Origin: Psammoneis japonica
Lineage: Eukaryota
Direction of reading: 5' to 3'
Assembly (NCBI GenBank): GCA_008632985.1
Contig: QPGO01000099.1
Span: 1-64,000, forward strand
DNA: 64,000 nt
Below are positions 5,959-44,438 of this stretch, one piece after another. A program made the translations under genes and the position numbers. The number at the start of each line of letters is the position of its first letter. Within the stretch, counting starts at the first letter, position 1. The notes beneath the pieces are model-generated. The model was not told the DNA's origin and did no database searches. It worked only from the letters and a program-made list of their open reading frames with translations.

Positions 5959-8900
5959 AACCTGCTGACCCACCAACCCACCGACCCGCCGACCCACCGA
6001 CCCACCAACCCACTGACTTGCCGACCCACCAACTCGGGGGTCGGCGGGTCGGTGGGGCGCCCCATCCAATTTCTTCATTGCTGGATGCCATGGCGAAACA
6101 TCCCTGAGAGAGAAGCAAAGTTCTTGATGTGGGCATTAAAAGCCTTTTAAAGAGACTGAGCCCGGCTCTCAGCTCATGCTGCCGGTCCTGACATGCCAAG
6201 CTTTGGCGGTCCTTTTGGTGTCCATTGCAACAGCATCTCAGGAATTTTCTGCCTCCCGTCAATTCAGAGTTTTTTGTTGAAACTGTCACCAATTGTTTGG
6301 CAAAAATGACTCTTTTAAATCAACAATCAAGATTGCATGTGCAGACATGGAAACACAATCTCTGTGTGTCATTTGTGCAACAATTTTGAGTGCTGTGGCT
6401 GTCACTTGATTGGAGTTAATTGTGCTTGGGGTTTGTGGGTTGGGGTTGGGGTTGGGGTTTGATGGGTCAGTGGGTCAGCGGGTTAGCAGGTCAGTGGGTC
6501 AGTTGTTCGGCGGGTCGGCGGGTCGGCAGGTCGGCGGGTCGGCAGGTCGGTGAGTCGGCGGGTCGGTGGGTCGGCGGGTCAACAGGTCGGCGGGGCACCC
6601 CATCCAATTTCTTCATTGCGGGATGCCGTGGCGATGCATTGCTGTGGCTGTCACTTGACTGGAGTTAATTGTGCTTGGGGTTTGTGGGGTTGGGGTTGGG
6701 GTTTGGTGGGTCAGCGGGTTGCTGTGGCTGTCACTTGATTTGAGTCAATTTTGCTTGGGGTTTGTGGGGTCGGCGGGGCGCCCCATCCAATTTCTTCATT
6801 GCTGGATGCCNNNNNNNNNNNNNNNNNNNNNNNNNNNNNNNNNNNNNNNNNNNNNNNNNNNNNNNNNNNNNNNNNNNNNNNNNNNNNNNNNNNNNNNNNN
6901 NNNNNNNNNNNNNNNNNNNNNNNNNNNNNNNNNNNNNNNNNNNNNNNNNNNNNNNNNNNNNNNNNNNNNNNNNNNNNNNNNNNNNNNNNNNNNNNNNNNN
7001 NNNNNNNNNNNNNNNNNNNNNNNNNNNNNNNNNNNNNNNNNNNNNNNNNNNNNNNNNNNNNNNNNNNNNNNNNNNNNNNNNNNNNNNNNNNNNNNNNNNN
7101 NNNNNNNNNNNNNNNNNNNNNNNNNNNNNNNNNNNNNNNNNNNNNNNNNNNNNNNNNNNNNNNNNNNNNNNNNNNNNNNNNNNNNNNNNNNNNNNNNNNN
7201 NNNNNTTCTGTCCATGGTGGAAACACTTGGGAAATTCCGGGGTGCACTGTTTGGCCAACACATTGACATGTGCGCGGTTCACAAGACACAACAAACACAG
7301 TCATGGGTGGGCAAATTGATGCAGCACACAACCAGGGCATGGTGAACGTTGTTGCAGAAGCATTCAGCCAACTTGCTGTGAAGAAAATTGAGCCTTTTGA
7401 AACCCTGCAACAATGTCCTGCCTTTAAAACAAGACAATGACATTTCCTCCAAATTGCCAGACGCAACACATCTTGCCAAAACTTTTTGTGGAGGCAAGCA
7501 AGATCAAAAAGTGATCATGTCACAAGGACAAAATTGTCTTGTCTGAAGACCCTTTGAAAAAATTGGTGACAGATTGGCGCACAATGCGCGCCCACTTCAC
7601 ACTGGAAAAAAGACAGTCTTGCAACACCCGTGCAGCTGCAGTGCAAAATGTGCAAGGCAAGACACAAACAAACAATGTCACTCTCAAAAGACATTTGGAA
7701 ATTGGAGCAGCCCTGTGTGGCCCACACAAAACAACAACAGTCATTGCCGGCGGCACAATGCAGCCAAATGTGGAGACAACATTGATGCTGTCAATGTCTG
7801 TTGAACAACTCAACTTGACAAATGACTCCAATGTTCAATTGGGGAGGCAATTGACAGACAATGTTGCCATTTCATGCATCAATGCCAGTGGTGTTTGGAC
7901 TGTCTGTTGTCATGACCACATTCTCCAAAAGGCCTTTTGTCTGCGGAAGCAATGCAGAAGCTTCAGGCCATTGAGGGCTCATTCCGGGAAACAAAAAATC
8001 ACAGAGCAAAATTTAATCTCACATTTTCCACTTTTTGCAATTTGTTTTGCTTTTCTTTGTGCTCATTCTTTGAGCACAGTGCGCCAGAGCAGATGTTTGA
8101 AAGGTTCCTTTGCACTGAGCAATGTTTTGACGTGTCCCAGAGAAAGAGATGGGTGTTGAGCTCAGGATGCCTTGCAAAGTGCAATGTGTTTTTGCCAAGG
8201 CCTGCAAAACACCAAAAACCAGTTGGGGGAGGCCATTTTGTGAAAGAGTGCGTCCAGGACAGTGAAAACAAGTTTTGGTTTTTTCCCACCTTTTTTGAAG
8301 GAGAAAGGGTGACTTTGCAGTGNNNNNNNNNNNNNNNNNNNNNNNNNNNNNNNNNNNNNNNNNNNNNNNNNNNNNNNNNNNNNNNNNNNNNNNNNNNNNN
8401 NNNNNNNNNNNNNNNNNNNNNNNNNNNNNNNNNNNNNNNNNNNNNNNNNNNNNNNNNNNNNNNNNNNNNNNNNNNNNNNNNNNNNNNNNNNNNNNNNNNN
8501 NNNNNNNNNNNNNNNNNNNNNNNNNNNNNNNNNNNNNNNNNNNNNNNNNNNNNNNNNNNNNNNNNNNNNNNNNNNNNNNNNNNNNNNNNNNNNNNNNNNN
8601 NNNNNNNNNNNNNNNNNNNNNNNNNNNNNNNNNNNNNNNNNNNNNNNNNNNNNNNNNNNNNNNNNNNNNNNNNNNNNNNNNNNNNNNNNNNNNNNNNNNN
8701 NNNNNNNNNNNNNNNCAGAAATGAAGCTGGCTGGCACAGATGAAGACCACAGCAAGGCAAAAAGGACACTTCAGAGAGGATCTGACAAGTGCAAAACAAA
8801 AGAAGAGCAGCCGTTGGCTTCAAGGGTGGCATTGTTTTGCAAATGCAATCGACGGACAATGCTGGCATCTCGCGCATCAATGCCAATGCACTTGGACTGT

Positions 8901-9517
8901 CTGTTGTCACGACCATGTTCCCTTGTGAGCCTTTTGACTGTGGAAGCAGCGCAGAAGCTTCAGGCCACTGAGAACTCATTCAGAGAAACCAAAAATCAAA
9001 GAGCAAATTTCAATCTTGTGATTTAAAATTGTGGTGCTTTGCTCTGCTTTTGTTTGCACTTGTTCTTTGAGCACAGTGCATTGCACACACACACCACAGA
9101 AGGTGAAATGGTGCTGAACTTGTTGGTGCCATTGGGTCTTGTCATTCAGTGCACAACATGCGTGGTCACAGCCACAACTTGTGGCAGCAACTGTGTTCTT
9201 CCCAGGACCAGCTGGCGACAAATTGACTGTCACAGCAGAGTTTGCGTTCAGTGCTGTGAAAGCTGTTGTTGGCAAGCAAGCTGTGGCTCAAGAAGGCCTT
9301 GAGGGAATGGAGCAAAGAGGCAGAACACACGGTCAGTCATTCAGTTGGCAGGTTGGCGGGTTGGCTGGTCGGCTGGTTGGCTGGTCGGCTGGTTGGCTGG
9401 TTGGTTGGTTGGTTGGTCGGTGGGTTGGTTGGTTGGTTGGTTGGTTGGTTGGTCAGTTGGTTGGCGATGAAGGTTCAGCCACTTTGATCACTTCCAAGGC
9501 TCAAAAAAGGTTCAGAG

Positions 9518-9884
9518 GATGCGCTCTGCTCTGGACGGGACCTTGCACTGCTGAACTGTGACATCAACATTTTTTTGGATGATTGTGCTGTGTGTTGTGC
9601 ACATGCATTTCCATGTGACTTTGGTGGAATTGTGCATCATTTTGTGGTGAAATTGCTGGGTGATCCATTCAACAGTTTTTGGCATTTTTTTCTTCTGCGT
9701 CATTTGCAAATGCATTGAGAATGGCGCAGGGCAGGCAGATTGCCAAAAAACTTTGAGTGTGGACAGCCACAAATGCACTTGAAGATGAAAATGTCCATCA
9801 ATGAAATTCTTGCACTGCAGAGCTCGCACATGGAATTCTGCGGGCCGAGTGTCACAAAACATCCCACCAGGACTGGAACCCGTC
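9518..9884 (-). mobile_element. MITE family, degenerate full-length copy (left arm)
   Basis: Both termini are recognisable. Mirror of 23815-24182. Confidence 0.75.
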
Positions 9885-12800
9885 ACTGACAAGGACAATC
9901 AGGGCATGGGATGGAAGGGACTTCAGCGCTGACCCACCGACCGACGCATTCCAGACGCAGGTTGGAATCCGTGTGACATTGGGCCTGTAGAATTCTGCGT
10001 GCGAGCTCCGCAGTAAAATCATTGGGTGATGAAAATGTCAATGATCGCCAACAGAAAATGAGGCAGTTTTGCGAACGCACAAACTCGTCCATGATTGAAG
10101 AACATCATTCATTGCTTGGCTGGGCACATTCTTCAGACATTGAAGAATGCAACTGGTGCATTGTTGTTTTTATAAATTTGTCATGTAAAACGTCTGGGGC
10201 TTTGCAAAACAGCGAGTCTGGACAATTTTTTTGAAATGTCACACGCAGAAATGCACGCGCGAAACATGCGACGGATGACAAAAATTGTTTGTGTCACACG
10301 TCAGTGCTGCGAGCTCCCACCTGGGGCTGCAATGCGTGACCCACTGACCCGCCGACCCACCGACCGCCGACCTTCTGACCTGCCGACCCGCCAACCCACC
10401 AACCTGCCAGCCCGCCGACCCACCGACACGCCAACCAAGCAACCAACCCACCAACCAGCCAGCCAGCCAACCAACCAACCAACCAACCAACCAACCAGCC
10501 AACCAACCAACCAACCAAGAGACATGACTCATTGTCCAGCAATGAAGAAATGAGATGGGGCTCAGCAATTGCCCCATGAAGAATGTCAGTGAACTCTTCG
10601 ACACCAACATTTTCCAGCTGAGTGCCAATCACATTGAAAATGTGGCGCTGTGAATGGAGTCAACAACAGGACCAGCGGCCCTTGGATCACATTGTTGCTC
10701 CATTGAATCCAATCAAGTGACAGCCACAGCAATGCATCCAAACCAAAATGATGCAACCCACTCAATCTTCTTCTTGACAGGTTTGAAATCCTTTTGAAAA
10801 GTTCCTTGGACAAATGAGTGTGGGAAGAACCAGTGGATCTCACCGTGAAAATTCTGATGCAATTCTACAATGCGTGAGAACCCTCTCCCATCACAGGCTT
10901 TGGCAGCATCCATTTGAAAGAAAATTTTCCAATTGCAAAAGATTGAAGTCCAAAACATTGGAATTTGTGTGAATCCATGCTTTTGGTGGTGAAAAACCGT
11001 TCGTAAGTCAGAGACCGCGCAAAAATCTCTCAAATGTCGTTTTTGTGCACAATTTGGGTCATGTGCGGCTGGAACACGTCAGTGGGTTGGTCATTCAGTG
11101 GGTTGGCGGGTTGGTGGGTCAGTTGGTTGGCAGGTTGGCGGGGCGGCGGGTCGGCGGGTCGGCAGGTTGGCAGGTCGGCGGGTTGGCGGGTCGGCAGCTG
11201 GGCAGGTCGGTGGGTCGGTGGGCAACCAACAAGCCGACCAGCCAACCAACCAACCAACCAGCCAACCCGCCAACTGAATGACTGGCTTGCTGGCTGAATG
11301 TGAGACATTGCATTTTGTTTCCAGCTGCAATGTTCTCTCAAGGCAAGCCCAAATTGACCGTGTGTTCTGTCTCTTTGCTCCGTTCCCTTGAGGCCTTCTT
11401 GAGCTTCAGCTCACCTGCCAACAACAGCTTTCACAGCACTGGACGCAAACTCAGCTGTGAAAGTCAATTTGTCACCAGCTGGCCCTGGGAAGACCACAGT
11501 TGTTGCAGCAAGTTGTGGCTGTGATCACGCATGTTGTGCACTGAATGACAAAACCCAATGGCAACCAACAAGTTCAGCACCATTTCACCTTCTGTGGTGT
11601 GTGTGCACAATGCAATGTGCTCATTTTTGGCAAAAACACATTGCACTTTGCAAGGCATCCTGAACTCAACATCAATCTGTTTCTCTGGGGTGCATCAAAA
11701 CATCACTCAGTGCAAAGGAACCTTTCAAACACCTGCTGTGGTGCACTTTGCTCAAAGAACAAGCGCAAAGGAAACCAGAGCAAAGTGCAAAAAGTGGAAA
11801 ATGTGAGAACAAACATTGGAGTCATTTGTCAAGTTGAGTTGTTCAACAGACATTGACAGCATCAATGTTGTCTCCTCGTTGACTGCATTGTGCCGCTGGC
11901 AATGACTGTTGTTGTTTTGTGTGGGCCACACAGGGCCGCTCCAATTTCCAAATGTCTTTTGAGAGCGACATTGCTTGTTTGTGTCTTGCCTTGCAGATTT
12001 TACACTGCAACTGCGCGGGTGTTGCAAGACTTTCTTTTTTTTCAGTGTGAAGTGGGCACGCATTGTGCCAATCTGTCACCAATTTTTCAAAGTGTCTTCA
12101 GACAAGACAATTTTGTCCTTGTGACATGAGCACTTTTTGATCTTGCTCGTCTCCACGAAAAGTGTTGGCAAGATGTGTTGCATCTGGCAATTTGCAGGAA
12201 ATGTCATTGTCTTGTTTCAACTCTTTGTTTGCCACAGCGACATGCGCGAATTTTTTTTTGCGTGCGTTGAAACGGGGCCACCATCAACAACACAACAAAT
12301 GGAACGTCGCGGTTCCGAGTCATTGCAACAGACAGCACCCCAATGCCATGCGGGGTGATCGTCAACATGGCAAGTTGTGTTCTGACAGCTTGGTTTGGTT
12401 TGTTGTTGCCTTGGCGTTGTTTTTTCACGTCGCATCTTACCTGCTGTCGCATCGGCATTTCTTGCATCACGACAGGCACGACCGACCGACATTGACAGAA
12501 ATGGTGTTGTTGTTTTTGGCATCCTGCTGGCAGAATCTGGTGGAACAGCAAACAAATCGGCAAGAATGTGACACAGTGCTGTTGTTCTGTTGCATCAGAG
12601 TGTCCTTTTTCCCATTCGACATTCCCTCAGCTTGCCCTTGCTCTTTTTGCTGCTGTTTTTTTCCTTTTCAGTGCGAGACAACCGTCTTTTGCGGTGTTGG
12701 CAACATGAGCGTCGGCAATGTCATGGACACAATGGACATCTCCATGCTTGCGTTCAGCTCCGATGATTTGTCCATGGAGGACGCTGATTTGGAGTCCGGC

Positions 12801-12904
12801 ATTGCTCCCTTGGCCTCTGACCTGCTGAACCACCTGATGACGTGCCGGTGCCAGCTCGGAGAGTGCCTGGTCAAACAAATTCTGTGGCCCATGATGGTTG
12901 GATT

Positions 12905-13309
12905 GCAGGACGATGTGTGCTTTTTCATGTTGATGTGGAGCATGGAGGGAAGAAGTGTGGCACGCTGCAGCTCTCAGCTGTTGCAGCAGATCCAAATGAC
13001 AAGTCTGCACTCGGCAAATTTGACGAGCACATCAAGCCTCCAGAAGGAACCAAGTGGACCAACGAGATGGAGAGGGCCTCCCAGGAGTCGCACAAACTCA
13101 AGCTCACTGATCCCCGCATGGCCAATGCTGACAAAATGGAATTGGTTTGGCCAAGATTTTGCAAGTTTGTAGAAGACAAGTTGGATGTGGGCTCCAAGGT
13201 TGGGATTCTGGCGGCATGGGGAGGCAAGGGAGGTGATTGCGAGTGCATGTTTTGTCTTGCTGAAGACACCCATCGCAAAACCTTGTCTGTGCTGCAAGGG
13301 CTGAAGCAC
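12905..13309 (+). pseudogene. Truncated DEDDh-type 3'-5' exonuclease domain (probably from a DNA transposon ORF), cut by the Copia junction
   Basis: Translation FHVDVEHGGKKCGTLQLSAV...FDEHIKPP...VWPRF...ILAAWGGKGGD resembles the ExoI (D-x-E) and ExoII motifs. It ends abruptly at 13309. Confidence 0.55.
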
Positions 13310-14419
13310 CCTCATTGCAAATGGCACCACCCTCTCTTCCACCTCCAGAGGCAACTGCGGCAATCGCACGACGATGCACAATCGTCTCTGGAAGGGTGGC
13401 GACTTTGGCAGCAAGATGATTGGCCGCCGTGGTGAATGTGATGCCTCCTCCAAACTCATTCTGTGCCTTCAAGGTCTCAACTGCTGCTTGCAGTGATTGG
13501 TGCTGCGTCTTCTCAAAGAGGATCCGCAACTTCTGGGCCTCCGTTTTTGGTTCTTTGTTCTCCTCAAAAATGTTGAACATTTCTTGGAGCTCGTTTGCAA
13601 AAGACTCAAACGGCACAGCGCGTTCACTCTTGTGATGGAGGGTGTTCTCCATGCACTCGGCTTCCGAGATGCGGTGGGAGGTGTTGCCTTCTCCCTGGCA
13701 ATGGTCGCACAACGCCCTAAAGTCGACTCGTCCGTTCTGTTCATTCTTGTGGTCCTTCAACCATTGCTCGCTGGGTGTGCCCGTGGTCAGGGACTCGACA
13801 AGTAGATGAACCGTACGAGCGTCAGCCTCGAAAGCTGGGCCTTGGAGGGGTGCACATGCAGTGCACTTCTGGACGAAAGCATTGTGGCCTTGAGGTTGGG
13901 TGCATCGTTTTGACGAATGCAACATGCCAACGGCACGCCAGAAACTCCCAGCATGATGCCAAGCATGTTCGTCAAGCCGGTGCACCACTTGACCCAATCC
14001 TTTTTGCTCTCTAACATTCCGGGCGACGCCTCTTTGCTGAGAGAGTCAGCAGCAGTCTTGGTCTGGGAACGGATCTTGGCACGACTGAGTGCCGTCTGGA
14101 GAGCAGCACGGAAAGTGGCCTGATCAAGCCCATCCAGAGCAGGATTCTCACCCACGCGACCGAAGTCCTGCACCCAATGGATGAGAGCTTTGAGTCGACG
14201 ACTGCGGGCCAAACCAAAATGAATGCGCCCTTCAGCAACCGTCCTCCTGGTGCACGAAGACGCAAGAGAATCAATGTCCTCTTCCTTGAGGTCTTCTAAA
14301 TCGTCAAAAGACGCAAAGTCCGCCATGAGTGGGACTCGTTGAGCTGGATCAACAAATCCGATCCATTCGAGTGCTGTCTCGACAGGATCCGGAGGAGCAG
14401 CCGCCATGGTGGCACCCAT
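13310..14419 (-). pseudogene. Copia (CoDi-type) gag, N-terminal part, inverted relative to pol; frameshifted
   Basis: ALEWIGF...RRLKALIHWVQDFGR...GVSGVPLACCIR...ALCDHCQGEG...FTTAANHLAA resembles diatom Copia Gag. It ends at GGAICNE, and the continuation DGSIDTG lies on the + strand at 14924. Confidence 0.8.
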
Positions 14420-14683
14420 GCCAGCAGGAAAACAGAGTCATGTGAGAAATCATAAATTCAAAAGGATGTCTCAGTTTGTGTTGACGACAACACACAGCCA
14501 TCAGAAGCATGGAGACTGGCCATGTCTCCTCACTGCTCGTGCATTCACTGATGCCAGGTGATGACAATCATCGTGCACCCTTCGATCGACCAGCATTCGT
14601 CGTCATGACCCTGCCACAATGGTGCGACCATCTCTTTGCAGTTGTTCAATGCTTTTTGTCAAACCAAACTTGAGTCAACGACT

Positions 14684-14695
14684 TGGCTCTGACAA
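14684..14695 (-). promoter_or_regulatory. Primer-binding site (tRNA-iMet-like), TpA-converted
   Basis: The minus strand reads ttgtcagagcca just after the LTR, versus canonical Copia (tgg)tatcagagcca. Confidence 0.6.
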
Positions 14696-14697
14696 AG

Positions 14698-14920
14698 CGA
14701 GTAAATCTAGCTGCCGAACAGGCTCAGCCACTCACAGTCTTAGCACGACAACGCGAACACAACCGACAAGATGCTTCTAGGCCTGTTGCAACTACAACGG
14801 ATGCAACAAGTGAAACCATTCTGTGGTCACCCGGCATTTTGGTCCGCGCACCAGTCACAGTTTCCCCACAGCATTTCCTGGAGCACACCAAACAGTTCCT
14901 GATGCATCGGATTTTGCTCG
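14698..14920 (-). mobile_element. 5' LTR of the Copia element (inverted)
   Basis: ~223 bp reverse-complement match to 19737-19958, followed on the minus strand by the PBS and gag. Confidence 0.9.
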
Positions 14921-17900
14921 GGGGATGGATCCATTGACACTGGATGCCACAAAAATTGGCACCAGTTGAGCAAGGAGGACAAACAGAAGGTTGTCGACGA
15001 GCGCGTGCGTCTGGGTGTTGCCAAACAACCTAAATCAACCAAATGCCGTGCTGCATCCGTCAAGTTGCTCAAGAAGAATAATCGGAAGCTGTCGTCGCAG
15101 CTTGAAGAAGCGAACCGCAAAATCTCCGCCCTGAACACTAACGCCAGTGCCGATTCTGGCGATGATGACTCAAGGGCTGGTGGCAAAGACGGAGACAATG
15201 CCGGAGATGCATTCGGTGGTCACAGCGAAAAGCGCCAAGGAAAGCAGAAATGACTGCCAAGCTGGACCCTGCTTGGTTGCATCACAAACTTCTTGTTGTG
15301 GTTGCTGCAATGGGGTGGGGGACAGCTGCATCGATCAAAGGAGCAGCATCCACGTGCCTGTGGCAAACGCATCTGTGAGGTTGTTGCCTCGACAAGACGT
15401 GTCTCGGCAACGCGGTCTGACACCACACGAATCACCCACATCAGCGACATGAGCAAGGTGCAGCATGGGCGTCTTGAAATGGACTTGCATGCTGACACCA
15501 CTGTTTTTGGTCAAAACTTTACCCTCTTGGGTTGTTCTGGACGAGAATGTGACGCATCGCATTTTAACGAGGGACACGAGTCCATCAAGAGTGTCCCAAT
15601 TGTCTCGGCAGCCACGGCGTGGACTTCACCGACATCGGGAGCAACTTTTATTCTGGTCTTCCACGAGGGCTTGTGGATGCCGGAGTCCATGGAGCACTCG
15701 CTGGTCAACCCAAACCAGCTGCGGCACTTTGGTGTTAAGGTTCAGGACAACCCCTGCTCCGATTCGCCACTGTGTGTCCTTGCTGAGGATGGATCTTTCA
15801 TGATGCCGCTTGAAGCTGTGGGGACCAATGTCGTTGCGGCAACTCGCACTCCTGCAGAGCAGGAATTGCACGAATGCCCCAAGATCCAGATGACCTCCCA
15901 ACAACCTTGGGATCCACAGACCGTCAAGTTCAAATCTGTTGGAACTCGACGATCTGCGGAGGAGGAAATGGAGCTAGTTCGGTCAATTGCGACGATCCAC
16001 ACCAATCTGACACACAAGTTCAAAGCTTATCCTGCCTGCAGCAACCCTCAATCGGGGACTGTTGTGATGAGCGATTCATTTGTGGAGTCGATCAAGTCCA
16101 ATCAAGGCTCACAGCTGCCGTCAATGTGGAAATGGAGCCAACAGTCCAGATCTCTGCCACGGAAACAATCGGCGAAGGACCTGAAGACTTGGCACTCCCG
16201 AAGATGTTCATGTCTGAGGAGAGACACAGTGATGTGTCGGCTGCTGACTCAAGTGAACGATGGTGCATGGGACTCAAGCAAGCAGCAAGCACGCTCAAGA
16301 AGACTGCACAAAAGCTCATCAGGTCAGCGTTGATGCCTGTGGGTCGACGCTGTCGGGCCGATCGGATGTTCACGAAGCCTGGGTTACGGGGTGAATGGGC
16401 AACCGACACAGCAGACGGCAAAGTGGTTTCGCTGGAGGGCAATCGATATGCCCAGATCTTTGCAAACAAGCAATGCTTGCTGCGATCTATCCCATGGACA
16501 AGAAGAGCAAGGCTGGCGAGGCTCTCAAGATGTTTTGCCAGGAATTTGGCGTGCCAGAGAAACTCCTGATGGACGGATCTAAGGAGCAAACAAAACCTGG
16601 CATGGAGTTCATGAAGACCGTGCGCAAGGAGGGCATAGATTGTCGTGTCATCGAACCTGATCGACACAACCAGAATCCTGCAGAACGAGTTGTGCGCGAG
16701 GTCAGACGCAAGTGGTTCCGTGTCATGGTCAAGAAGCAAGTGCCGCGGCGACTGTGGGACTGCGGATTCACGTGGACATGTGAGACCATGTCTCGCACGT
16801 TCCTTCGAGCACATCATTTGGATGCAGGAGCACCACTGGAGAACGTTCTCGGAGAGACCGTGGACATCTCGGAGTGCCTCGACTTTGGATTTTATGATTG
16901 GGTCTGGCACAGGGAGAATGCCGGTCTGGGGGACGAGAAGCTTGGTGGGTGGCTTGGTGCACCTCACAGAACAGGGAGTCTCATGTCGCACTGCATTCTG
17001 ACACAGACAGGCAGTGTCATTTCGAGAACTTCCGTCCAACGAGTCACCAATTTGGAAGCCGCCACTCAAGAGAAAAAGGCAGAGTTCAACAGTTTTGACG
17101 AGGAGATCAAGCGACGGTTGAAGGAGCAAGATTTCCCCGATGACAAGGATCGCAAGATCAGTCCCGAAGACTGGAAAGACTGCCTTGGATATGACGATGA
17201 ATTCCTTGATGAGCATGATCGTGTCACATCCTCAGAGGAGGCAGCAAATGACGACGACGACAAGAAAAACGAGGAAGCCTCGCCGGAGGCGGCAGACTGG
17301 GGATGCATTGGCATGGAGGTTGCGCTTCCACGAGATGATGATGGTCCTGAGTTTGCTCGTGTCATGAAGAGGTTGAGAGATGCCAATGGTGTTCCGACAG
17401 GAACGGCTGATGACAATCCCATCCTTGATGCAAGGATGCATGAGGCAGAGCACCCTGATGGGCACCATGCTGTGCTCTCTGCTAACTCCATCGCCATGAA
17501 CATGTTTGCTCAGATCGACGAGGACGGAAACCGGCACGTCTCATTCGATGAGATCGTTGATTGCCGCACCAACGGGGACGTTCCTGAATCCGAATTCTTT
17601 GAGACCGAGCAAGGCGTTCGGAAGAGGCGCAAGACTGCCAAAGAATGGGAACTTTTGTTCCAATGGAAGGATGGAAGTGCGACTTGGATCGACTTGAAGA
17701 TTGCGAAGGAGAGCTTCCCAGTCCAAGTTGCCAAGATCGCCATTCAGCGCAAGATCTCGGGTGAGGCAGCGTTTGCTTGGTGGGTTCCTCATGTCATGAA
17801 AACCCGCAAGCGTTCCATTGCGAAGGTCAAGTCAAAGCACTGGCTACGAACACACAAATTTGGCACGCGGATCCCGAAGAGTGTCAGAGGCGATCCAGAT

Positions 17901-19552
17901 CGATCACGCAAATGGCAACACGCTATGGTGGGACGCCATTTGCACGGAGATGAAGAATGTGCGGGTTGCTTTTGACAAGTGTGAAGGGGAGCTTAAGGAC
18001 ATGGCGCCTGGTTTCCAGGAAGTGAAGTGCCACATGATTTTTGACATCAAGTTGGGAGAAAACTTCCGCCGCAAAGCTCGCATGGTGGCTGGAGGCCACA
18101 CCACTGAAACCCCCGCACACATCACTTGCTCCTCTGTCGTCTCTCGGGATTCGGCGAGAATTGCACTGACGCTTGCTGCGCTCAATGACTTGCAAGTCTT
18201 TGCGTGTGACATCCAGAACGCCTGCCTTGCTGCCCCTTGCAGGGAGAAGATTTGGACCAGAGCAGGGTCCGAGTTTGGCAAAGATTAAGGTTGCATCATG
18301 ATTGTGGTCAGGGCCCCACATGGATTGAAGAGCTCCGGAGCAGCGTTCAGGGCTTTTCCAGCGGAGACGCTTTATGATCTAGGGTGCAAACCGAGCAAGG
18401 CTGGTCCGGATGCATGGATGAGACCTGCGGTGAAACCCGACGGATTCGAGTGCCACGAACACGTTCCAGTTTATGTGGACGACGTGCTGTCGATTAGTCA
18501 CAAACCCATGAAGACAATGGATGGCATCAGGTCCAAGTTCAAGCTCAAGGGTGACAAGGCAGCCGAACCGGATTCCTGCCTCGGTGCTGCGCTTTCCAAG
18601 ATGACTTTAGCCGATGGGACCACCTGTTGGGCAATGTCTGCGGAGAAGTGCTGCAAGTCCGCTGTCCAAAATGTGGAGGACAGGCTTGGCAAGGAGGGGA
18701 AACTTCTGCCTGGCAAGGCGACAACCCCATTGAGCAGTGGATGCAAACCCGAGTTAGATGCCACTGGCGAGTTGGACACTGAAGGACTTCACCATTGTCA
18801 AGAGCTGATTGGTGTGCTGGTTTGGGCGGCAGAACTCGGTGGAGTGGACATCCATTTGGAGGTTTCGTTGATGTCTGCTCACCTCGCTCTCCCTCGCATT
18901 GGTCATCTGGAACAGGCATTGCACATCTTTGCATGCCTCAAACAGGTCCCAAAGCGCCAAGCAGCATTTGATCCGGCTCATCCCAGGATCGATGAATCGC
19001 GATTCGTGAAGCACGACTGGCGCGACTTCTGCCGAGATGCAAGAGAAGCCATTCCGACAAATGCACCACCAGCTCGAGGCAATGCAGCATCGACACATTG
19101 TTTTGTGGATGCCAACCATGCCGGAAATGTTGCCGATCGCCGCAGCCATACAGGCATCTTGATGTTCATGTTAACCGGGCACCCATTGTGTGGCACTCGA
19201 AGTGTCAGAATGCCGTGGAGGCTGGCACATTTGGAGCAGAGATCGTTGCACTCAAGAATGCCATCGAGCTCGCAGAGAGTCTACGACACAAGCTTCGAAT
19301 GTTTGGAGCACCGATCGAAGGGCCAACAAATGTCTTCTGTGACAATGAGGCCGTCCACAAGAATTGCTCCATTCCTGAGTCTACACTCAAGAAGAAGCAT
19401 CACTCCATTGCGTGTCACCGTAACCGCGAAGCTGTTGCTGCGGGGACTGTTGGGATTGCAAAGGGGGAACAGAGACAAACCTCAGCGATCTGTTCACGAA
19501 GGTTGTGTTGTCTGTCAGGCGAAATTTTCTGTTAGACAAGTTCGCGCATTGA
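14921..19552 (+). pseudogene. Copia gag C-terminus + pol (protease, integrase, RT, RNase H), decayed
   Basis: PR: LEMDLHADT. IN: ATDT..MDGSKEQ..QNPAERVVRE. RT: CHMIFDIK..RKARMVAGGH, DIQNACL, HGLKSSG, YVDD. RH: FVDANHAG, FGAEIVA, FCDNEAV, KKKHHSIACH. PR-IN-RT-RH order; several frameshifts and a stop at 18286-18288. Confidence 0.95.
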
Positions 19553-19728
19553 GATGGATGTGTGAAGCGGTGGTGAGTTTCTTCCCCAGTGAGGGTTTGC
19601 ACCATGCACAAAGGATTGGCGGCTTTTCCCTGGCAAGGGTTTTACGCCGATCAATGAGTCAAGATGTTTGAGCCAGATCACTGACACAGCATTGGGTTGA
19701 ATTGTGCCTTACGAGTCAGGTGCATTTC

Positions 19729-19736
19729 GAGGGGAC
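19729..19736 (+). promoter_or_regulatory. Polypurine tract
   Basis: gaggggac immediately before the 3' LTR. Confidence 0.65.
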
Positions 19737-19958
19737 CGAGCAAAATCCGATGCATCAGGAACTGTTTGGTGTGCTCTGGGAAATGCTGTGGGGAAACTGT
19801 GACTGGTGCACAGACCAAAATGCCGATGACCACAGAATGGTTTGACTTGTTGCATCCGTTGTAGTTGCAACAGGCCCAGAAGCATCTCATCGGTTGCATT
19901 CGCGTTGTCGCACTAAGACTGTGAGTGGCTGAGCCCATTCGGCAGCTAGATTTACTCG
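19737..19958 (+). mobile_element. 3' LTR of the Copia element
   Basis: 222 bp, follows the PPT, short terminal inverted repeat cgagcaaa...tttactcg, matches 14698-14920. Confidence 0.9.
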
Positions 19959-20368
19959 CTCCAGTGCTTCAGCCCTTGCAGCACAGACAAGGTTTTGCGA
20001 TGGGTGTCTTCAGCAAGACAAAACATGCACTCGCAATCACCTCCCTTGCCTCCCCATGCCGCCAGAATCCCAACCTTGGAGCCCACATCCAACTTGTCTT
20101 CTACAAACTTGCAAAATCTTGGCCAAACCAACTCCATTTTGTCAGCATTGGCCATGCGGGGATCAGTGAGCTTGAGTTTGTGCGACTCCTGGGAGGCCCT
20201 CTCCATCTCGTCGGTCCACTTGGTTCCTTCTGGAGGCTTGATGCACTCGTCAAATTTGCCGAGTGCAGACTTGTCATTTGGATCTGCTGCAACAGCTGAG
20301 AGCTGCAGCGTGCCACACTTCTTCCCTCCATGCTCCACATCAACATGAAAAAGCACACATCGTCCTGC
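19959..20368 (-). pseudogene. Second, inverted copy of the truncated DEDDh exonuclease domain
   Basis: ORF 19952-20356 is nearly identical to the 12905-13309 translation. Confidence 0.55.
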
Positions 20369-23300
20369 TGCAATGCACAGCCGCTGATGAGAGTCAGTGC
20401 ATCACGGCAACGTGTTGCAGCCTTTAAATGTCACAAAGGGCGTGACAAAAACAACCTTTTGTCTGCATGCATCCTGCGTTGTGAATTCACAGCGGAGTGG
20501 TTCATCGCAACCATCAGGCAGGAGGCCAGGGGTTCGAAACCCTGAGTGGGAGTTGTCTGCAGCAACGTTGATCACTGTCGAACGCGCAAAACTCTGTGCA
20601 AATCTGTGTGTCCCTTCGCACGTACCAACACTGTTCCTCCAAAACTGTGCAGTGTCAGCAGACGTTGGTAAAGAGCCGCATGGATGCGCGACACATGGGA
20701 AGGAGTGCAACACACAGCTGCCAATGAGAGTCAATGCATCACGGCGACGTGTTGCAGCCTTTGAATGTCACAAAGGGTGTGACAAAAACAACCTTTTGTC
20801 TGCATGCACACTGCACTGCAATCCAGTCATCATGGGTCACAGAATTTGTTTGACGAGGCGCTCTCCGAGCTGGCGCCGGCACGTCATCAGGTGGTTCAGC
20901 AGGTCAGAGGCCAAGGGAGCAATGCCGGACTCCAAATCAGCGTCCTCCATGGATGCATCATCGGAGCTGAACGCAAGCATGGAGATGTCCATTGTGTCCA
21001 TGACATTGCCGATGCTCATGTTGCCAACACCGCAAAAGACGGTTGTCTCGCACTGAAAAGAAAAAAAACAACAGCAAAAAGAGCAAGGGCAAGCTGAGGG
21101 AATGTCGAATGGGAAAAAGGACACTCTGATGCAACAGAACAACAGCACTGTGTCACATTCTTGCCGATTTGTTTGCTGTTCCACCAGATTCTGCCAGCAG
21201 GATGCCGAAAACAATTGACACCATGTCAGTCGGTCGCGCCTGTCATGATGCAAGAAATGCCGACACGACAGCAGGTGAGACACGATGTGAAAAAACAACG
21301 CCAAGGCAACAACAAACCAAACCAAGCCATCACAGCGCACCTTGCCGTGTTGACAATCACCCCGCATGGCGTTGGGGTGCTGTCTGTTGCAATGGCTTGG
21401 AACCGCGACGTTCCATTTGTTGTGTTGTTGATGGTGGCCCCGTTTCAATGCACGCAAAAAAAAATTCGCGCGTGTCGCTGTGGCAAACAAAGAGTTAAAA
21501 CAAGACAATGACATTTCCTGCAAATTGCCAGATGCAACACATCTTGCCAACACTTTTCGTGGAGACGAGCAAGATCAAAAAGTGCTCATGTCACAAGGAC
21601 AAAATTGTCTTGTCTGAAGACACTTTGAAAAAATTGGTGACAGATTGGCGCACAATGCGTGCCCACTTCACACTGAAAAAAAATGAAAGTCTTGCAACAC
21701 CCGCGCAGTTGCAGTGTAAAATCTGCAAGGCAAGACACAAACAAGCAATGTCACTCTCAAAAGACATTTGGAAATTAAAGCGGCCCTGTGTGGCCCACAC
21801 AAAACAACAACAGTCATTGCCAGCGGCACAATGCAGTCAACGTGGAGACAACATTGATGCTGTCAATGTCTGTTGAACAACTCAACTTGACAAATGACTC
21901 CAATGTTTGTTCTCACATTTTCCACTTTTTGCACTTTGTTCTGGTTTCCTTTGCGCTTGTTCTTTGAGCAAAGTGCACCACAGCAGGTGTTTGAAAGGTT
22001 CCTTTGCACTGAGTGATGTTTTTGATGTATCCCAGAGAAACAGATTGATGTTGAGTTCAGGATGCCTTGCAAAGTGCAATGTGTTTTTGCCAAAAATGAG
22101 CACATTGCATTGTGCACACACACCACAGAAGGTGAAATGGTGCTGAACTTGTTGGCGCCATTGGGTTTTGTCATTCAGTGCACAACATGCGTGATCACAG
22201 CCACAACTTGCTGCAGCAACTGTGGTCTTCCCAGGGCCAGCTGGTGACAAATTGACTTTTGCAGCTGAGTTTGCGTCCAGTGCTGTGAAAGCTGTTGTTG
22301 GCAAGTGAGCTGAAGCTCAAGAAGGCCTTGAGGGAACGGAGCAAAGAGACAGAACACACGGTCAATTTGGGCTTGCCTTGAGAGAACATTGCAGCTGGAA
22401 ACAAAATGCAACGTCTCACATTCAGCCAGCAAGCCAGTCATTCAGTTGGCGGGTTGGCTGGTCGGTTGGTTGGCTGATCGGCTGGTTGGTTGCCCACCGA
22501 CCCACCGACCTGCCCAGCCGCCGACCCGCCAACCCGCCGACCCGCCGACCGGCCAACCTGCCAACCCGCCAACCTGCCAACCAACCGACCCACCAACCCG
22601 CCAACCCACTGACCAACCAACCAGCCGCACATGACCCAAATCGTGCACAAAAACGACATTTGCGCGATTTTTGCGCGGTCTCTGACTTTCAAATGGTTTT
22701 TCACCACCAAAAGCACAGATTCGCACAAGTTCTGATGTTTTGGACTTCAATCTTTTGCAGTTGGAAAATTTTCTTTCAAATGGATGCTGCCAAAGCCTGT
22801 GATGGGAGAGGGTTCTCACGCATTGCAGAACTGCATCAGAGTTTTCACGGTGAGATCCACTGGTTCTTCCCACACTCATTTGTCCAAGGAACTTTTCAAA
22901 AGGATTTCAAACCTGTTGAGAAGAAGATTGAGTGGGTTGCATTATTTTTGTTTGGATGCATTGCTGTGGCTGTCACTTGATTGGATTCAATGGAGCAACA
23001 ATGTGGTCCAAGGGCCGCTGGTCCTGTTGTTGACTCCATTCACAGCGCCACATTTTCAATGTGTTTGGCACTCAGCTGGAAAATGTTGGTGTCGAAGAGT
23101 TCACTGACATTCTTCATGGGGCAATTGCTGAGCCCCATCTCATTTCTTCATTGCTGGACAATGAGTCATGTCTCTTGGTTGGTTGGTTGGTTGGCTGGTT
23201 GGTTGGTTGGTTGGTTGGTTGGTTGGCTGGCTGGCTGGTTGGTGGGTTGGTTGCTTGGTTGGCATGTCGGTGGGTCAGCGGGCTGGCAGGTTGGTGGGTT

Positions 23301-26300
23301 GGCGGGTCGGCAGGTCAGAAAGGTCGGCGGGTCGGTGGGTCGGCGGGTCAGTGGGTCAACGCATTGCAGCCCCAGGTGGGAGCTCGCAGCACTGACGTGT
23401 GACACAAACAATTTTTGTCATCCATCGCATGTTTTTTGCGCGTGCATTTCTGCATGTGACATTTCAAAAAAATTGTCCAGACTCGCTGTTTTGCAAAGCC
23501 CCAGACGTTTTACATGACAAATTTATAAAAACAACAATGCACCAGTTGCATTCTTCAATGTCTGAAGAATGTGCCCAGCCAAGCAATGAATGATGTTCTT
23601 CAATCATGGGCAAGTTTGTGCGTTCGCAAAACTGCCTCATTTTCTGTTGGCGATCATCGACATTTTCATTGCCCAATGATTTTACTGTGGAGCTCGCACG
23701 AAGAATTCTGCAGGCCCGATGTCACACGGATTCCAACCTGCGTCTGGAACGCGTCGGTCTTTGGGTCAGCGCTGAAGTTCCCTTCCATCCCATGCCCTGA
23801 TTGTCCTTGTCAGTGACGGGCTCCAGTCCTGGTGGGATGTTTTGTGACACTCGGCCCGCAGAATTCTGTGTGCGAGCTCTGCAGTGCAAGAATTTCATTG
23901 ATGGACATTTTCATCTTCAAGTGCATTTGTGGCTGTCCACACTCAAAGTTTTTTGGCAATCTGCCTGCCCTGCGCCATTCTCAATGCATTTGCAAATGAT
24001 GCAGAAGAAAAAAATGTCAAAAACTGTTGAACGGATCACCCAGCAATTGCACTGCAAAATGATGCACAGTTCCACCAAAGTCACATTGAAATGCATGTGC
24101 ACAACACACAGCACAATCATCCAAAAAAATGTTGATGTCACAGTTCAGCAGTGCAAGGTCCCGTCCAGAGCTAGAGCGCATCCTCTGAACCTTTTTTGAG
24201 CCTTAGAAGTGATCAAAGTGGCTGAACCTTCATCGCCAACCAACTGACCAACCAACCAACCAACCCACCAACCAACCAACCCACCAACCAACCAACCAAC
24301 CAGCCAACCAACCAGCCGACCAGCCAACCAGCCGACCAGCCAACCCGCCAACTGAATGACTGGCTTGCTGGCTGAATGTGAGACGTTGCATTTTGTTGCC
24401 AGCTGCAACATTCTCTCAAGGCAAGCCCAAATTGACTGTGTGTTCTGCCTCTTTGCTCCATTCCCTCAAGGCCTTCTTGAGCCACAGCTTGCTTGCCAAC
24501 AACAGCTTTCACAGCACTGAATGCAAACTCTGCTGCGACAGTCAATTTGTTGCCAGCTGGCCCTGGGAAGACCACAGTTGCTGCAGCAAGTTGTGGCTGT
24601 GATCACGCATGTTGTGCACTGAATGACAAGACCCAATGGCGCCAACAAGTTCAGCACCATTTCACCTTCTGTGGTGTGTGTGCACAATGCACTGTGCTCA
24701 AAGAACAAGTGCAAACAAAAGCAGAGCAAAGCACCACAATTTCAAATCACAAGATTGAAATTTGCTCTTTGATTTTTGGTTTCTCTGAATGAGTTCTCAG
24801 TGGCCTGAAGCTTCTGCGCTGCTTCCACAGACAAAAGGCTCATCAGGGAACATGATCGTGACAACAGACAGTCCGAGTGCATTGGCATTGATGCACGAGA
24901 TGCCAGCATTGTCTGTCAATTGCATTTGCAAAACAATGCCACCCTTGAAGCCAACGGCTGCTCTTCTTTTGTTTTGCACTTGTCAGATCCTCTCTGAAGT
25001 GTCCTTTTTGCCTTGCTGTGGTCTTCATCTGTGCCAGCAAGCTTCATTTCTGTGTTTCATTTCTCTCTTTCATCTTTTGCAGACATTTTGCAACAGCCAA
25101 GTTTGCGCTGGCATTTTGTCCCCATTTCCCCCTTCCCACTTCCTTTTCCTTTCTTGGGCTTGAATTCCTTTCAGCCTTGCTTTTCAGCCTTTGCCCGCTG
25201 CCCATCACCTGAACCCCAAACCTGTCCATGTGTGCTGTCTGGGTGTGGCAAAGGTTGTGGGTCATGAGCCCAAATGGGCAGGGTCCTTTTTGTTGTCTTG
25301 TCCGTGCACACCGTGTGTGTGTGACATGCCATCAACTGGTTTTTGGTGTTTTGCAGGCCTTGGCAAAAACACCTTGCACTTTGCAAGGCATCCTGAACTC
25401 AACATCCATCTCTTTCTCTGGGACACGTCAAAACATTGCTCAGTGCAAAGGAACCTTTCAAACATCTGCTCTGGTGCACTGTGCTCAAAGAACAAGCGCA
25501 AAGAAAAGCAAAACAAAGTGCAAAAAGTGGAAAATGTGAGATTGAATTTTGCTCTGTGATTTTTTGTTTCCCGGAATGAGCCCTCAATGGCCTGAAGCTT
25601 CTGCACTGCTTCCGCAGACAAAAGGCCTTTTGGAGAATGTGGTCGTGACAACAGACAGTCCAAACACCGCTGGCACTGATGCATGAAATGGCAACATTGT
25701 CCGTCAATTGCCTCCCCCAATTGAACATTGGAGTCATTTGTCAAGTTGAGTTGTTCAACAGACATTGACAGCATCAATGTTGTCTCCACATTGGCTGCAT
25801 TGTGCCGCCGGCAATGACTGTTGTTGGTTTGTGTGGGCCGCACAGGGCTGCTCCAATTTCCAAATGTCTTTTGAGAGCGACATTGTTTGTTTGTGTCTTG
25901 CCTTGCACATTTTGCACTGCAGCTGCGCGGGTGTTGCAAGACTGTCTTTTTTTCCAGTGTGAAGTGGGCATGCATTGTGCGCCAATCTGTCACCAATTTT
26001 TTCAAAGGGTCTTCAGACAAGACAATTTTGTCCTTGTGACATGATCACTTTTTGATCTTGCTTGCCTCCACAAAAAGTTTTGGCAAGATGTGTTGCATCT
26101 GGCAATTTGGAGGAAATGTCATTGTCTTGTTTTAAAGGCAGGACTTTGTTGCAGGATTTTAAAAGGCTCAATTTTCTTCACAGCAAGTTGGCTGAATGCT
26201 TCTGCGACAACGTTCACCATGCCCTCGTTGTGTGCTGCATCAATTTGCCCACCCATGACTCTGTTTGTTGTGTCTTGTGAACCACGCACATGTCAGTGTG

Positions 26301-26353
26301 TTGGCCAAACAGTGCGTTCCGGAATTTCCCAAGTGTTTCCACCATGGACAGAA
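19964..26353. repeat. Right arm of the large inverted duplication
   Basis: Reverse complement of 7206-13309, with an extra ~445 bp at ~20370-20815. Confidence 0.9.
23815..24182 (+). mobile_element. MITE family, degenerate full-length copy (right arm)
   Basis: gacgggctccagtcct...gtcccgtccagagctagagcgcatc, colinear with 39597-39986. One TA counted. Confidence 0.75.
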
Positions 26354-27155: not shown

Positions 27156-28619
27156 GAGCATCTTTGCCAGCGAGTCGTGAACACAAACCTGTGTCCGTGT
27201 GTCTTCTGATGCAAATGAGATTCACAAAAAATCATCATTTTTGGTGCATCGTAAACATGTTTTTTGCGCTGATGACCCTTTTCAGATTTGTGGCTCATGA
27301 AAGTGAATCGCAAATCAGGGAGACGCCTCAAATCTGTTGAAACTTGAACAATGAACATCACATGAGTGAACGAACAAATGCATCAAAAACAACATGCATC
27401 GCGCAGATGTTCAAAATGTGCATGGACGTCAACTGGGCCAGTGCTCAAAATTTGCACAAAATGACACAGAGAGATTGTGCTTCCATGTCTGCACACGCAA
27501 TCTTGATTGTTGATTTAAAAGAGTCACATTTGCCNNNNNNNNNNNNNNNNNNNNNNNNNNNNNNNNNNNNNNNNNNNNNNNNNNNNNNNNNNNNNNNNNN
27601 NNNNNNNNNNNNNNNNNNNNNNNNNNNNNNNNNNNNNNNNNNNNNNNNNNNNNNNNNNNNNNNNNNNNNNNNNNNNNNNNNNNNNNNNNNNNNNNNNNNN
27701 NNNNNNNNNNNNNNNNNNNNNNNNNNNNNNNNNNNNNNNNNNNNNNNNNNNNNNNNNNNNNNNNNNNNNNNNNNNNNNNNNNNNNNNNNNNNNNNNNNNN
27801 NNNNNNNNNNNNNNNNNNNNNNNNNNNNNNNNNNNNNNNNNNNNNNNNNNNNNNNNNNNNNNNNNNNNNNNNNNNNNNNNNNNNNNNNNNNNNNNNNNNN
27901 NNNNNNNNNNNNNNNNNNNNNNNNNNNNNNNNNNNNNNNNNNNNNNNNNNNNNNNNNNNNNNNNNNNNNNNNNNNNNNNNNNNNNNNNNNNNNNNNNNNN
28001 NNNNNNNNNNNNNNNNNNNNNNNNNNNNNNNNNNNNNNNNNNNNNNNNNNNNNNNNNNNNNNNNNNNNNNNNNNNNNNNNNNNNNNNNNNNNNNNNNNNN
28101 NNNNNNNNNNNNNNNNNNNNNNNNNNNNNNNNNNNNNNNNNNNNNNNNNNNNNNNNNNNNNNNNNNNNNNNNNNNNNNNNNNNNNNNNNNNNNNNNNNNN
28201 NNNNNNNNNNNNNNNNNNNNNNNNNNNNNNNNNNNNNNNNNNNNNNNNNNNNNNNNNNNNNNNNNNNNNNNNNNNNNNNNNNNNNNNNNNNNNNNNNNNN
28301 NNNNNNNNNNNNNNNNNNNNNNNNNNNNNNNNNNNNNNNNNNNNNNNNNNNNNNNNNNNNNNNNNNNNNNNNNNNNNNNNNNNNNGACCCACCAAACCCC
28401 AACCCCAGCCGCACAAGCCCCAGGCACAATTGACTCCAATCAAGTGACAGCCACAGCAGTGCATCGCCACGGCATCCTTCAACAGGTCTGCGGGTCGGCG
28501 GGTCGGCGGGTCTGCGGGTCGGGGATCAGCGGGTCGGTGGGTCGGCGGGTTGGTGGGTCGGCGGGTCGGCGGGTCGGTTGGTCAGCAGGTCGGCGGGGCG
28601 CCCCACCCAATTTCCTCAT

Positions 28620-29460
28620 TTGCCATCTGCCATCCACCATCCACCATCCAGCATCTGCCATCCACCATTCACCATTCGCCATCCGCCATCCACCATCCAC
28701 CATCCAGCATCTGCCATCCACCATTCGCCATTCACCATTCACCATTCACCATCTGCCATCCGCCATCCACCATTCGCCATCTGCCATCCGCCATCCACCA
28801 TCCACCATCCAGCATTTGCCATCCGCCATCCACCATCCACCATCCAGCATCTGCCATCCACCATTCGCCATTCACCATCTGCCATCCGCCATCCACCATT
28901 CGCCATCTGCCATCCGCCATCCACCATCCAGCATTTGCCATCCGCCATCCACCATCCACCATCCACCATCCAGCATCTGCCATCCACCATTCACCACTCG
29001 CCATCTGCCATCCACCATCCACCATCCAGCATCTGCCATCCACCATTTGCCATTCACCATTCACCATCTGCCATCCGCCATCCACCATTCGCCATCTGCC
29101 ATCCGCCATCTGCCATCCACCATCCAGCATTTGCCGTCCGCCATCCACCATCCACCATCCACCATCCAGCATCTGCCATCCACCATCCACCATCTGCCAC
29201 CCGCCATCCAACATCCAACATCCACCATCCACCATCCACCATCCACCATCCACCATCCACCATTTGCCATCCACCATTCACCATCCACCATCCACCATTC
29301 AGCATCCGCCATCCGCCATCCACCATCCACCATTCAGCATTTGCCATCCGCCATCCGCCATCCACCATCCACCATCCAGCATCTGCCATCCACCATCCGC
29401 CGTCCACCATTCACCATCCACCATCCACCATTCAGCATCTGCCAACCGCCATCCACCACC
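28620..29460. repeat. Degenerate 7-bp satellite (CCATYYR), block 1
   Basis: Continuous ccatcca/ccatccg/ccatctg/ccattca/ccattcg/gcatctg units. Confidence 0.97.
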
Positions 29461-43790: not shown

Positions 43791-44438
43791 ATGTACCAGT
43801 GAATGGACCCGGAATTGACTTTGTCAAAAGACCACTGAAAATGTCTCACCTCACACTGTCTGATCCGCCTGTCTCTGAACAAAAAGCAAACCCCACGTGG
43901 CACTGTCGCATCATTTTCACGAAGAATAATTTGATGTGAATCTTAAGAACCGTAATTCTGCTGTACATAGACGCTTCGTTGATTCCTTATCGTCTGTCTT
44001 GGCTGTGCTATGGCAATGGTGTGTTTCTATTGTCCGCGCGTTCATCGTGTTATATAATTGTGCAGGACATGAAACAGAATGAATTCTAATCCTTTCTACT
44101 CTATCCTTAGCCGCCAAAAACTGAACTTCTATTTTATTGGTGTTGAAATGAGTGGAGTGGCAACGCAGTTTTACCAATCTGTCGAGCCAGCCAAATGGCT
44201 GATCAGCAGTGATTATCCAACCCTGCTAGATAGGAGCAGCTAGGAATATTTTCCATGGCGGACCAAACGTGGCAATGGTAAACGGTGTTCTTCTCATGCT
44301 CGGTGGCCTATGGTGCGTGGGTCTTTCATCGTATCGAATCTATCGGATCTTTGCCGTTGTACCGCACACGATTCACCTTGACAATCACACTATGGACAGT
44401 ATATGCATTCATCATTGGAGCTTTTCATTTTCAGCAAA

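Follow-up and report, generated by a model that had tools for sequence, protein, structure and literature searches.

How do the two long terminal repeats (LTRs) of one retrotransposon come to differ by reciprocal dinucleotides, with one repeat reading CA where the other reads TG? The question is raised by a copia-type element at 13310-19960 of a 64,000-nt stretch of Psammoneis japonica DNA (GenBank assembly GCA_008632985.1, contig QPGO01000099.1, positions 1 to 64,000, forward strand), the whole of which is referred to here as the window. A sequence-only reading of the element had taken the repeats for an ordinary LTR pair, identical at integration, and had proposed that the differences arose afterwards in DNA, on both strands, probably at ancestral TA steps. 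The reading that best explains the whole locus, to which we assign a probability of about 0.62, is that an element with a flipped LTR lies in a palindrome of the same age, and that its TpA steps were erased to CpA or TpG after the repeat copies separated.

Repeat search, BLAST and alignment identify 14696-14921 (+) as an inverted repeat matching the reverse complement of 19736-19960. The alignment spans 225 columns with 15 mismatched bases and one 1-nt indel (93.3% identity), and contains all six of the sites named by the sequence-only reading. Four of them read CA in the left copy and TG in the right (14719-14720 with 19936-37, 14744-14745 with 19911-12, 14758-14759 with 19897-98, and 14767-14768 with 19888-89), a fifth reads TG/CA (14879-14880 with 19777-78), and a single-hit site reads TA/TG (14779 with 19877). 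The alignment also reveals differences that had gone unmentioned: G/C at 14812, the 1-nt indel at 14830, and C/T at 14831, 14845 and 14847, the last two being CG/TG differences. If 15 mismatches were placed at random, at least five adjacent pairs would be expected with P=0.0011, and all five pairs observed (5/5) are of the single type CA/TG.

The direction of change can be read from the codons of the adjoining pol region. The best 120 of 611 pol homologues were aligned to it by tblastn, and 618 codons are covered by at least 30 of these homologues. A consensus residue at 60% is available for 443 of these codons; the window agrees at 363 and differs at 80. Among the 80 differences, 14 are TA>TG and 11 are TA>CA, with three more ambiguous between TA>TG and a transversion, so that 25 (+3 ambiguous) lead from TA to CA or TG, versus three from CG (two CG>CA and one CG>TG). 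The remainder comprises six other transitions (plus one ambiguous), 22 transversions, and 20 codons that need two or more changes. The same bias is seen at conserved residues. At 20 conserved Tyr positions a single TAT survives, while 11 now encode Cys (TGY), five His (CAY) and three other residues; at 30 conserved Arg positions, 21 codons are CGN, four AGR, one TGT and four encode other residues. Conserved Tyr codons are thus converted in 16 of 20 cases, whereas 21 of 22 CGN codons are intact: TpA loss outruns CpG loss in the copia element by a wide margin. Both CpA and TpG were produced from TpA, the pattern that characterizes TpA hypermutation, and the two products interleave along pol (13 runs vs 13.3 expected), with no sign of strand-coordinated runs of mutation. 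The flanks of mutated and spared strands at the 25 polarized events gave no readable signal, as Tyr codons dominate them. Because an active element could not lack these tyrosines, the pol changes must postdate insertion and have occurred in DNA on both strands. The same claim for the LTRs, that their differences arose in DNA after the copies separated and on both strands, is also supported.

To what, then, do the CA/TG pairs of the LTRs trace back? We counted dinucleotide pairs over the 5,856 aligned bases of the whole inverted duplication, which hold 134 CG/CG, 38 CG/TG, 28 CG/CA, 21 CA/TG, 11 TA/TA, six TA/TG and six TA/CA pairs, and six other double-transition pairs. Five of the CA/TG pairs lie in the LTRs and 16 in the outer arms. 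A uniform CpG model predicts 0.05 for the LTRs (P(>=5)=2.5e-9), or 0.03 at the rate of the element itself, and 4.1 for the outer arms, and swaps within a single lineage via a short-lived TA or CG predict 0.13 and 3.5, respectively. The density of CA/TG pairs is eight-fold higher in the LTRs (5/225 nt) than in the TA-exhausted arms (16/5,631 nt; p=0.001), the outcome that an LTR copied shortly before, with its TpA steps still fresh, would give. Moreover, the Tyr-codon rate applied to 10-12 starting TpAs gives 4.4-5.3 discordant sites and 1.1-1.3 single hits, where five and one are seen. An outgroup state comes from a single sequencing run (X1) found to hold the repeat family, which may be the assembly's own data. 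At 14744 the family reads T in 28 X1 contigs (3,735/4,332 depth, 86%), so that CG cannot be the state of the family there; among the 40 of 408 family differences listed across 12850-15200, 14744 is the only one of the six sites. Together with the Tyr and CGN codons and the CpG model, these data bear out the earlier preference for TA over CG. The ancestral state was read directly at one of the six sites, for its first base, the others having no outgroup, and TA ancestry of the five particular CA/TG sites is accordingly our inference from the bias as a whole.

The structure of the locus is less ordinary than a paired-LTR element would suggest. The two 226-bp repeats are, by their anatomy, probably the 5' and 3' LTRs of a single copia-type retrotransposon. 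Its pol region (protease, integrase, reverse transcriptase (RT) and RNase H; 14922-19735, +) is colinear with residues 496-688 and 888-1375 of P0162, a 1,910-aa RVT_2 polyprotein, and its 611 homologues (E<=1e-10) include named ones from the diatom Fragilaria crotonensis. The region is decayed, with frameshifts and one stop codon besides the Tyr-to-Cys/His changes. Its integrase (P0162 residues 888-1375) lies upstream of RT, which is the Ty1/copia order, and homologues carry PF07727; the window's own RVT_2 match is weak (20.2 bits, below the Pfam cut-off of 31.6). The C-terminal part of the integrase frame (16395-17972, +) also features an EF-hand-like match at aa 368-390 (23.7 bits vs a cut-off of 25.4), a stretch that is conserved in P0162.

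The 3' LTR (19736-19960, +) follows immediately on a purine run, GAGGGGA. The 5' LTR (14696-14921, -) is inverted along with a 1,386-bp gag-like block (13310-14695, -), which follows it on the minus strand. The block is recognized by the minus-strand open reading frame (ORF) 13107-14045, which matches aa 190-368 of P0162 (44% identity, E 7e-50), and by joins in X1 contigs; a Pfam scan of 13310-14695 gave no match. Contigs of X1 join 13318 to 14923 on opposite strands, and the loose contig ends that precede 14923/14924 agree with the reverse complement of 13311-13340 in 22 of 30 bases. In the normal element the end of the left block is the start of the right block, with a 2-nt overlap, which argues that one element was broken once. 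The normal element would therefore run LTR-gag-pol-LTR in one direction, and the window would hold its 5' LTR and gag portion (13310-14921) flipped; every part is then present, and the blocks abut at the normal gag/pol point, but gag and the 5' LTR are on the opposite strand. The LTRs are inverted instead of direct, and their flanks (AGCAC on the left, CCAGT on the right) carry no target-site duplication. The family is abundant, with 716 X1 contigs matching 12850-15200 at >=80% identity; 17% of positions vary among them, and transitions make up 339 of the 407 variable places.

Window self-comparison shows that the element is enclosed by a 6-7 kb palindrome, at whose core the LTR repeats lie. 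Its left arm (7206-13309) is old, TA-exhausted repeat DNA with a TpA observed-to-expected ratio (O/E) of 0.04, and its right arm occupies 19964-26353. Inverted matches pair 7206-8225 with 26353-25333 (96.6%), 8716-12908 with 25052-20816, and 12905-13309 with 20368-19964 (99%), so that the flanks of the element are inverted copies of each other up to the junctions. On the left, 1,386 extra bases (13310-14695) separate the 99% segment from the repeat; on the right, a 3-nt filler, CCA (19961-19963), alone does so, and an X1 contig carries this right-arm junction, joining 13309 to 14696 with three letters between. The ordinary LTR pair of the sequence-only reading is therefore replaced by an inverted pair, without target-site duplication, at the centre of a palindrome. 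The arms also have internal structure. The right arm carries 447 extra bases that the left arm lacks (20369-20815), within which 20369-20477 and 20706-20814 form a 109-bp direct repeat (90% identical), and each arm holds inverted repeats of its own (7424-7835, 11812-12220, 21495-21907 and 25724-26135, together with 9068-9335 / 11355-11623 and their partners), which share 94% identity inside one arm and 98-99% between the two. The arms themselves are built from an older fold-back-like repeat. Pfam scans of the 26 arm ORFs of at least 90 aa returned low-complexity matches alone, with no protein domain usable as an outgroup.

Divergence outside pyrimidine-purine (YR) steps is the same in both parts of the palindrome, at 2/225 in the LTRs and 83/5,631 in the arms (Fisher p=0.77), a background of about 1%. 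This equality suggests that the LTR pair and the arms are of one age. It also provides an internal control for dating. The raw LTR divergence is 6.7% versus 0.9% outside YR steps, so that dating by the repeats at 14696-14921 and 19736-19960 is inflated about seven-fold; the sequence-only reading had warned of such inflation. In yeast, a broken chromosome end is known to yield palindromes when it fuses or is capped as a hairpin, and retrotransposon cDNA can be captured at the break. As in those cases, the arms here start at the same base, a 3-nt filler is present, target-site duplications are lacking, cDNA termini form the junctions, and a single break has left the pieces of the element in opposite orientations. 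The palindrome may have arisen at such an end, trapping a rearranged copy of the element at its centre. The likeness is one of anatomy, and the alternative is that the element inserted into a pre-existing, older palindrome and underwent an inversion there.

Several observations weigh against the proposed history of a flipped element, a coeval palindrome and TpA erasure. As the pair is inverted and lacks a target-site duplication, its identity at time zero is deduced from structure and equal background divergence and is not the given that the sequence-only reading assumed. An outgroup state was obtained at 14744 alone of the six sites, and pattern scans of metagenome contigs for other LTR copies returned 0 matches. 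Four TpA steps are retained in both LTRs, contrary to a uniform conversion rate of 94%; a susceptibility that depends on the flanks is needed to explain them, which would be a post hoc addition. The flank-context likelihood ratio for TA over CG across all 21 CA/TG sites is weak, at 1.7 nats. In the gag block, three TG>CA swaps relative to the family majority (13799-800, 13880-81 and 14053-54) occurred in a single lineage, both letters being read differently by 90-100% of depth, and are accompanied by one CA>TA and two CG-creating changes. Outer-arm outgroups were taken from realigned four-copy internal repeats, with six columns (52-76 of F3, a simple repeat) excluded; at the four CA/TG sites retained, a paralogue reads CG at two and TA at none. 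The CpG route is therefore real in this locus. CpG decay and swaps together predict about 7.6 CA/TG sites in the outer arms vs 16 observed, a shortfall that indicates heterogeneity among sites. Given the gag swaps and the CG in the arms, a CA/TG pair need not record an ancestral palindromic dinucleotide that was hit twice independently. Finally, the family is high-copy, and a short-read assembly could have mixed its copies.

This last concern leads to the rival in which repeats from different family members lie head to head, or were merged by the assembly, and the differences are older variation between copies. The inverted orientation, the lack of a target-site duplication, the 716 variable contigs and the five N gaps in the window's scaffold are all compatible with it. 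Yet in the normal element the end of one block and the start of the other coincide, to within their 2-nt overlap, which is unlikely for independent fragments; the LTR background divergence equals that of the flanking arms; and the junctions are free of N gaps, the right-arm one being present in an X1 contig. We regard such a mixture as unlikely, and the differences would remain DNA changes of TpA or CpG type even so. Decay of 5-methylcytosine (5mC) makes a different proposal: the copies would have parted with CpG at the five sites, which then became TG through one strand in one copy and CA through the other strand in the other. Double CpG decay classically yields CA/TG pairs, and the arms display 66 single CG/TG or CG/CA differences and a CpG O/E of 0.38-0.54. 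Two CG/TG differences occur within the LTRs themselves, CG stands in the paralogue at two of the four testable arm sites, and a two-class model of hot and cold CpGs can fit the outer arms. In the LTRs, however, 10 CpGs are intact in both copies and two are hit once, from which the expectation of 0.05 derives, and a fit would require some 12 CpGs at 91% decay beside 10 undecayed ones within 226 bp. The intact CGN codons of the adjoining pol, the family T at 14744, and the eight-fold richness of CA/TG in LTRs whose CpG density is similar to that of the arms all argue against this route, and it is rather improbable as the origin of the five pairs.

The gag swaps are the natural support for a third proposal, namely that an ancestral CA or TG passed through TG>TA>CA or TG>CG>CA in one copy alone. 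Sequential hits of this kind may explain about 3.5 of the 16 outer-arm pairs, but the 0.13 expected in the LTR pair falls far from five, and the LTR enrichment is left unexplained given that the arms are far richer in CA and TG steps; this account is very unlikely. Least credible of all is editing before integration, either A-to-I editing of RNA by an ADAR-like enzyme with its 5' U preference or deamination of cDNA. A preference for a 5' T/U neighbor does resemble that of ADARs, as discussed in a recent preprint (bioRxiv 10.64898/2026.01.13.699255), and inverted repeats can form double-stranded RNA. Both LTRs are copied from the same template, however, and changes made before integration cannot differ between them. 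Furthermore, the pol sense strand carries CA (11) and TG (14) products interleaved, the destruction of 16 conserved Tyr codons is impossible for an active element, and the surrounding DNA of non-retroelement origin is also TA-exhausted.

If TpA erasure is the correct reading, the sequence of events would be as follows. The copies separate while the LTRs still carry TpA steps, and a host process acting in repeat DNA then converts TpA to CpA or TpG, reaching most of the susceptible steps in both LTRs. The A of 5'-TA-3', on either strand of chromosomal DNA, would become a base that reads as G, giving an A:T-to-G:C transition. The simplest chemistry would be adenine deamination to inosine at 5'-TA-3', although a thymine modification that mispairs with G would leave the same pattern. 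Where different element strands are hit in the two copies, a CA/TG pair would result (five sites); where one copy alone is hit, TA/TG would result (one site); and the four TpA steps in less susceptible flanks would be kept in both. The process would be aimed at mobile or silenced DNA and would run until susceptible TpAs are exhausted, with CpG decay proceeding in parallel, more slowly in the copia element.

Flanking bases hint at such differences in susceptibility. Surviving TpAs across the window favor TTAA, CTAA, CTAG and GTAA and avoid ATAC, ATAT and ATAG; the four that survive in both LTRs stand in GTAA, CTAG, TTAG and CTAC, and a 5' A precedes three of the five CA/TG sites of the LTRs. 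A genome-strand asymmetry, suspected since one and the same dinucleotide stands on the top strand of both arms, is not supported, as the arms are balanced (11 CA/TG vs 8 TG/CA clean pairs). Within the LTRs, cases in which both arms were hit on one genomic strand outnumber the others 9:2 (p=0.065). If chance and flank preference do not account for this tally, or for double hits exceeding single hits in the LTRs (5 sites vs 1), the two could point to a mutator that acts on a duplex between the inverted copies, formed by strand fold-back or guided by double-stranded RNA, and converts both adenines of a TpA at once. We consider such a mutator a long shot; if true, it would constitute a homology-sensing step analogous to that of repeat-induced point mutation (RIP), with the opposite chemistry.

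TpA erasure is not confined to the element. Over 4-44 kb and 54-60 kb, about 45 kb in all, TpA O/E is 0.00-0.17, with CpA and TpG O/E raised to 1.5-1.9, whereas it is 0.59-0.80 at 44-52 kb, a G-protein-coupled receptor (GPCR) gene region that includes a 7tm_3/ANF_receptor gene (44.4-47.3 kb) with homologues named from Thalassiosira and Seminavis. Depletion is thus found in the copia element and repeat debris, with the GPCR gene region spared. By module, TpA O/E is 0.04 in the old arms, 0.08 in gag, 0.13 in pol and 0.30-0.39 in the LTRs. The switch from erased (<0.15) to normal (0.4-0.8) values takes place within 0.5-1 kb, at about 3.0 kb, 43.5-44.0 kb, 52.0-52.5 kb and 60.5-61.0 kb, which suggests that the process respects domain borders. 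A sequencing or conversion artefact is ruled out by this regional depletion with sharp borders and normal neighboring genes. CpG O/E is most lowered in the oldest DNA and reaches 0.69-0.80 in the LTRs. It falls to 0.05-0.26 at 40001-44000 and 56001-60500, compared with 0.7-0.8 in the equally TpA-poor copia element, and TpA erasure and CpG decay are therefore uncoupled in degree, perhaps through differences in age or methylation.

Other features of the window include a 399-aa open frame at 53648-54844 (-), with a TpA O/E of 0.06-0.28, a thrombospondin type-3 repeat (TSP_3, Pfam E 2e-07) and repeated ELW..D-like motifs. It has no obvious transposon gene identity and could be a gene of foreign origin, or one in decay, on which the process has acted. 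About 6 kb at 28630-29462 and 30937-36268 consist of a 7-bp satellite, (CCATCCA)n (76-79% unit identity), with a GC skew down to -0.7, zero TpA and an N gap (27535-28385) directly before it. At 51254-51807, a 108-bp tandem repeat (5.1 copies, 98% identity) lies within a long minus-strand ORF that encodes a repeated coiled-coil-like motif.

How does this process compare with known ones? In Neurospora and other ascomycetes, RIP converts CpA to TpA by C>T changes, which creates TpA and lowers GC. It resembles the process described here in its dinucleotide-specific transitions on both DNA strands, its action after insertion, its aim at repeats and its destruction of coding capacity. The product is the reverse, however: the repeats here have lost almost all of their TpA, where CpA>TpA change would have enriched them in it, and GC rises. 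Deamination of 5mC at CpG likewise yields TG and CA, with reciprocal CA/TG pairs as its expected late stage, and the 66 single differences and lowered CpG O/E document CpG decay in the locus; it differs in being too slow in the element for five double hits in 226 bp. Hyper-editing by ADARs shares the A-to-G change with a 5' U/T neighbor and the use of inverted repeats as substrates, but it acts on RNA and leaves no heritable both-strand differences between genomic copies.

The closest precedent is that of Bigelowiella natans, for which Mettrop et al. describe A:T>G:C hypermutation at TpA only in integrated giant-virus and virophage DNA and propose adenine deamination to inosine (Mettrop et al., bioRxiv 10.64898/2026.01.13.699255). 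According to that preprint, TpA alone is hit in chromosomal DNA, giving CpA or TpG by strand, and the process is confined to regions of foreign or repeat origin with long-term TpA depletion and CpA and TpG enrichment, all as seen here; genes low in TpA in B. natans are enriched in reverse-transcriptase and DDE domains. The two cases also differ. B. natans is a chlorarachniophyte, whereas the host here is a diatom-like stramenopile, and the target is an LTR retrotransposon with old repeat DNA. TpA erasure is near complete here (O/E 0.04-0.13), compared with the Rho of 0.45 given for the B. natans nucleocytoplasmic large DNA virus (NCLDV) region, and is accompanied by CpG decay in older DNA. A flank preference (5' A favored, TTAA spared) is found here and is not reported in the available B. 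natans text, which in turn presents de novo mutations from mutation-accumulation lines, while the process here is known from sequence alone.

A full-text search of a limited literature collection found no published report of TpA-to-CpA/TpG erasure in diatoms or LTR pairs. The locus contributes CA/TG pairs as a late-stage signature, a measure of dating inflation that has its own internal control, the flank preference and the unusual flipped-LTR palindrome. The locus amounts to a natural experiment, in which fresh LTRs and old TA-exhausted DNA were duplicated at about the same time, and the divergence of 6.7% in the fresh LTRs over the background of about 1% measures the failure of LTR dating. 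CA/TG pairs can mark late-stage TpA loss besides CpG decay, which matters when signatures of CpG decay are read. Mutation that removes TpA from mobile DNA mirrors fungal RIP in reverse, and its single published precedent is the 2026 preprint, which deals with an unrelated alga. Finding it in a genome of diatom-like character suggests that a system of genome defence or mutation is more widespread in lineages of the stramenopiles, alveolates and Rhizaria (SAR).

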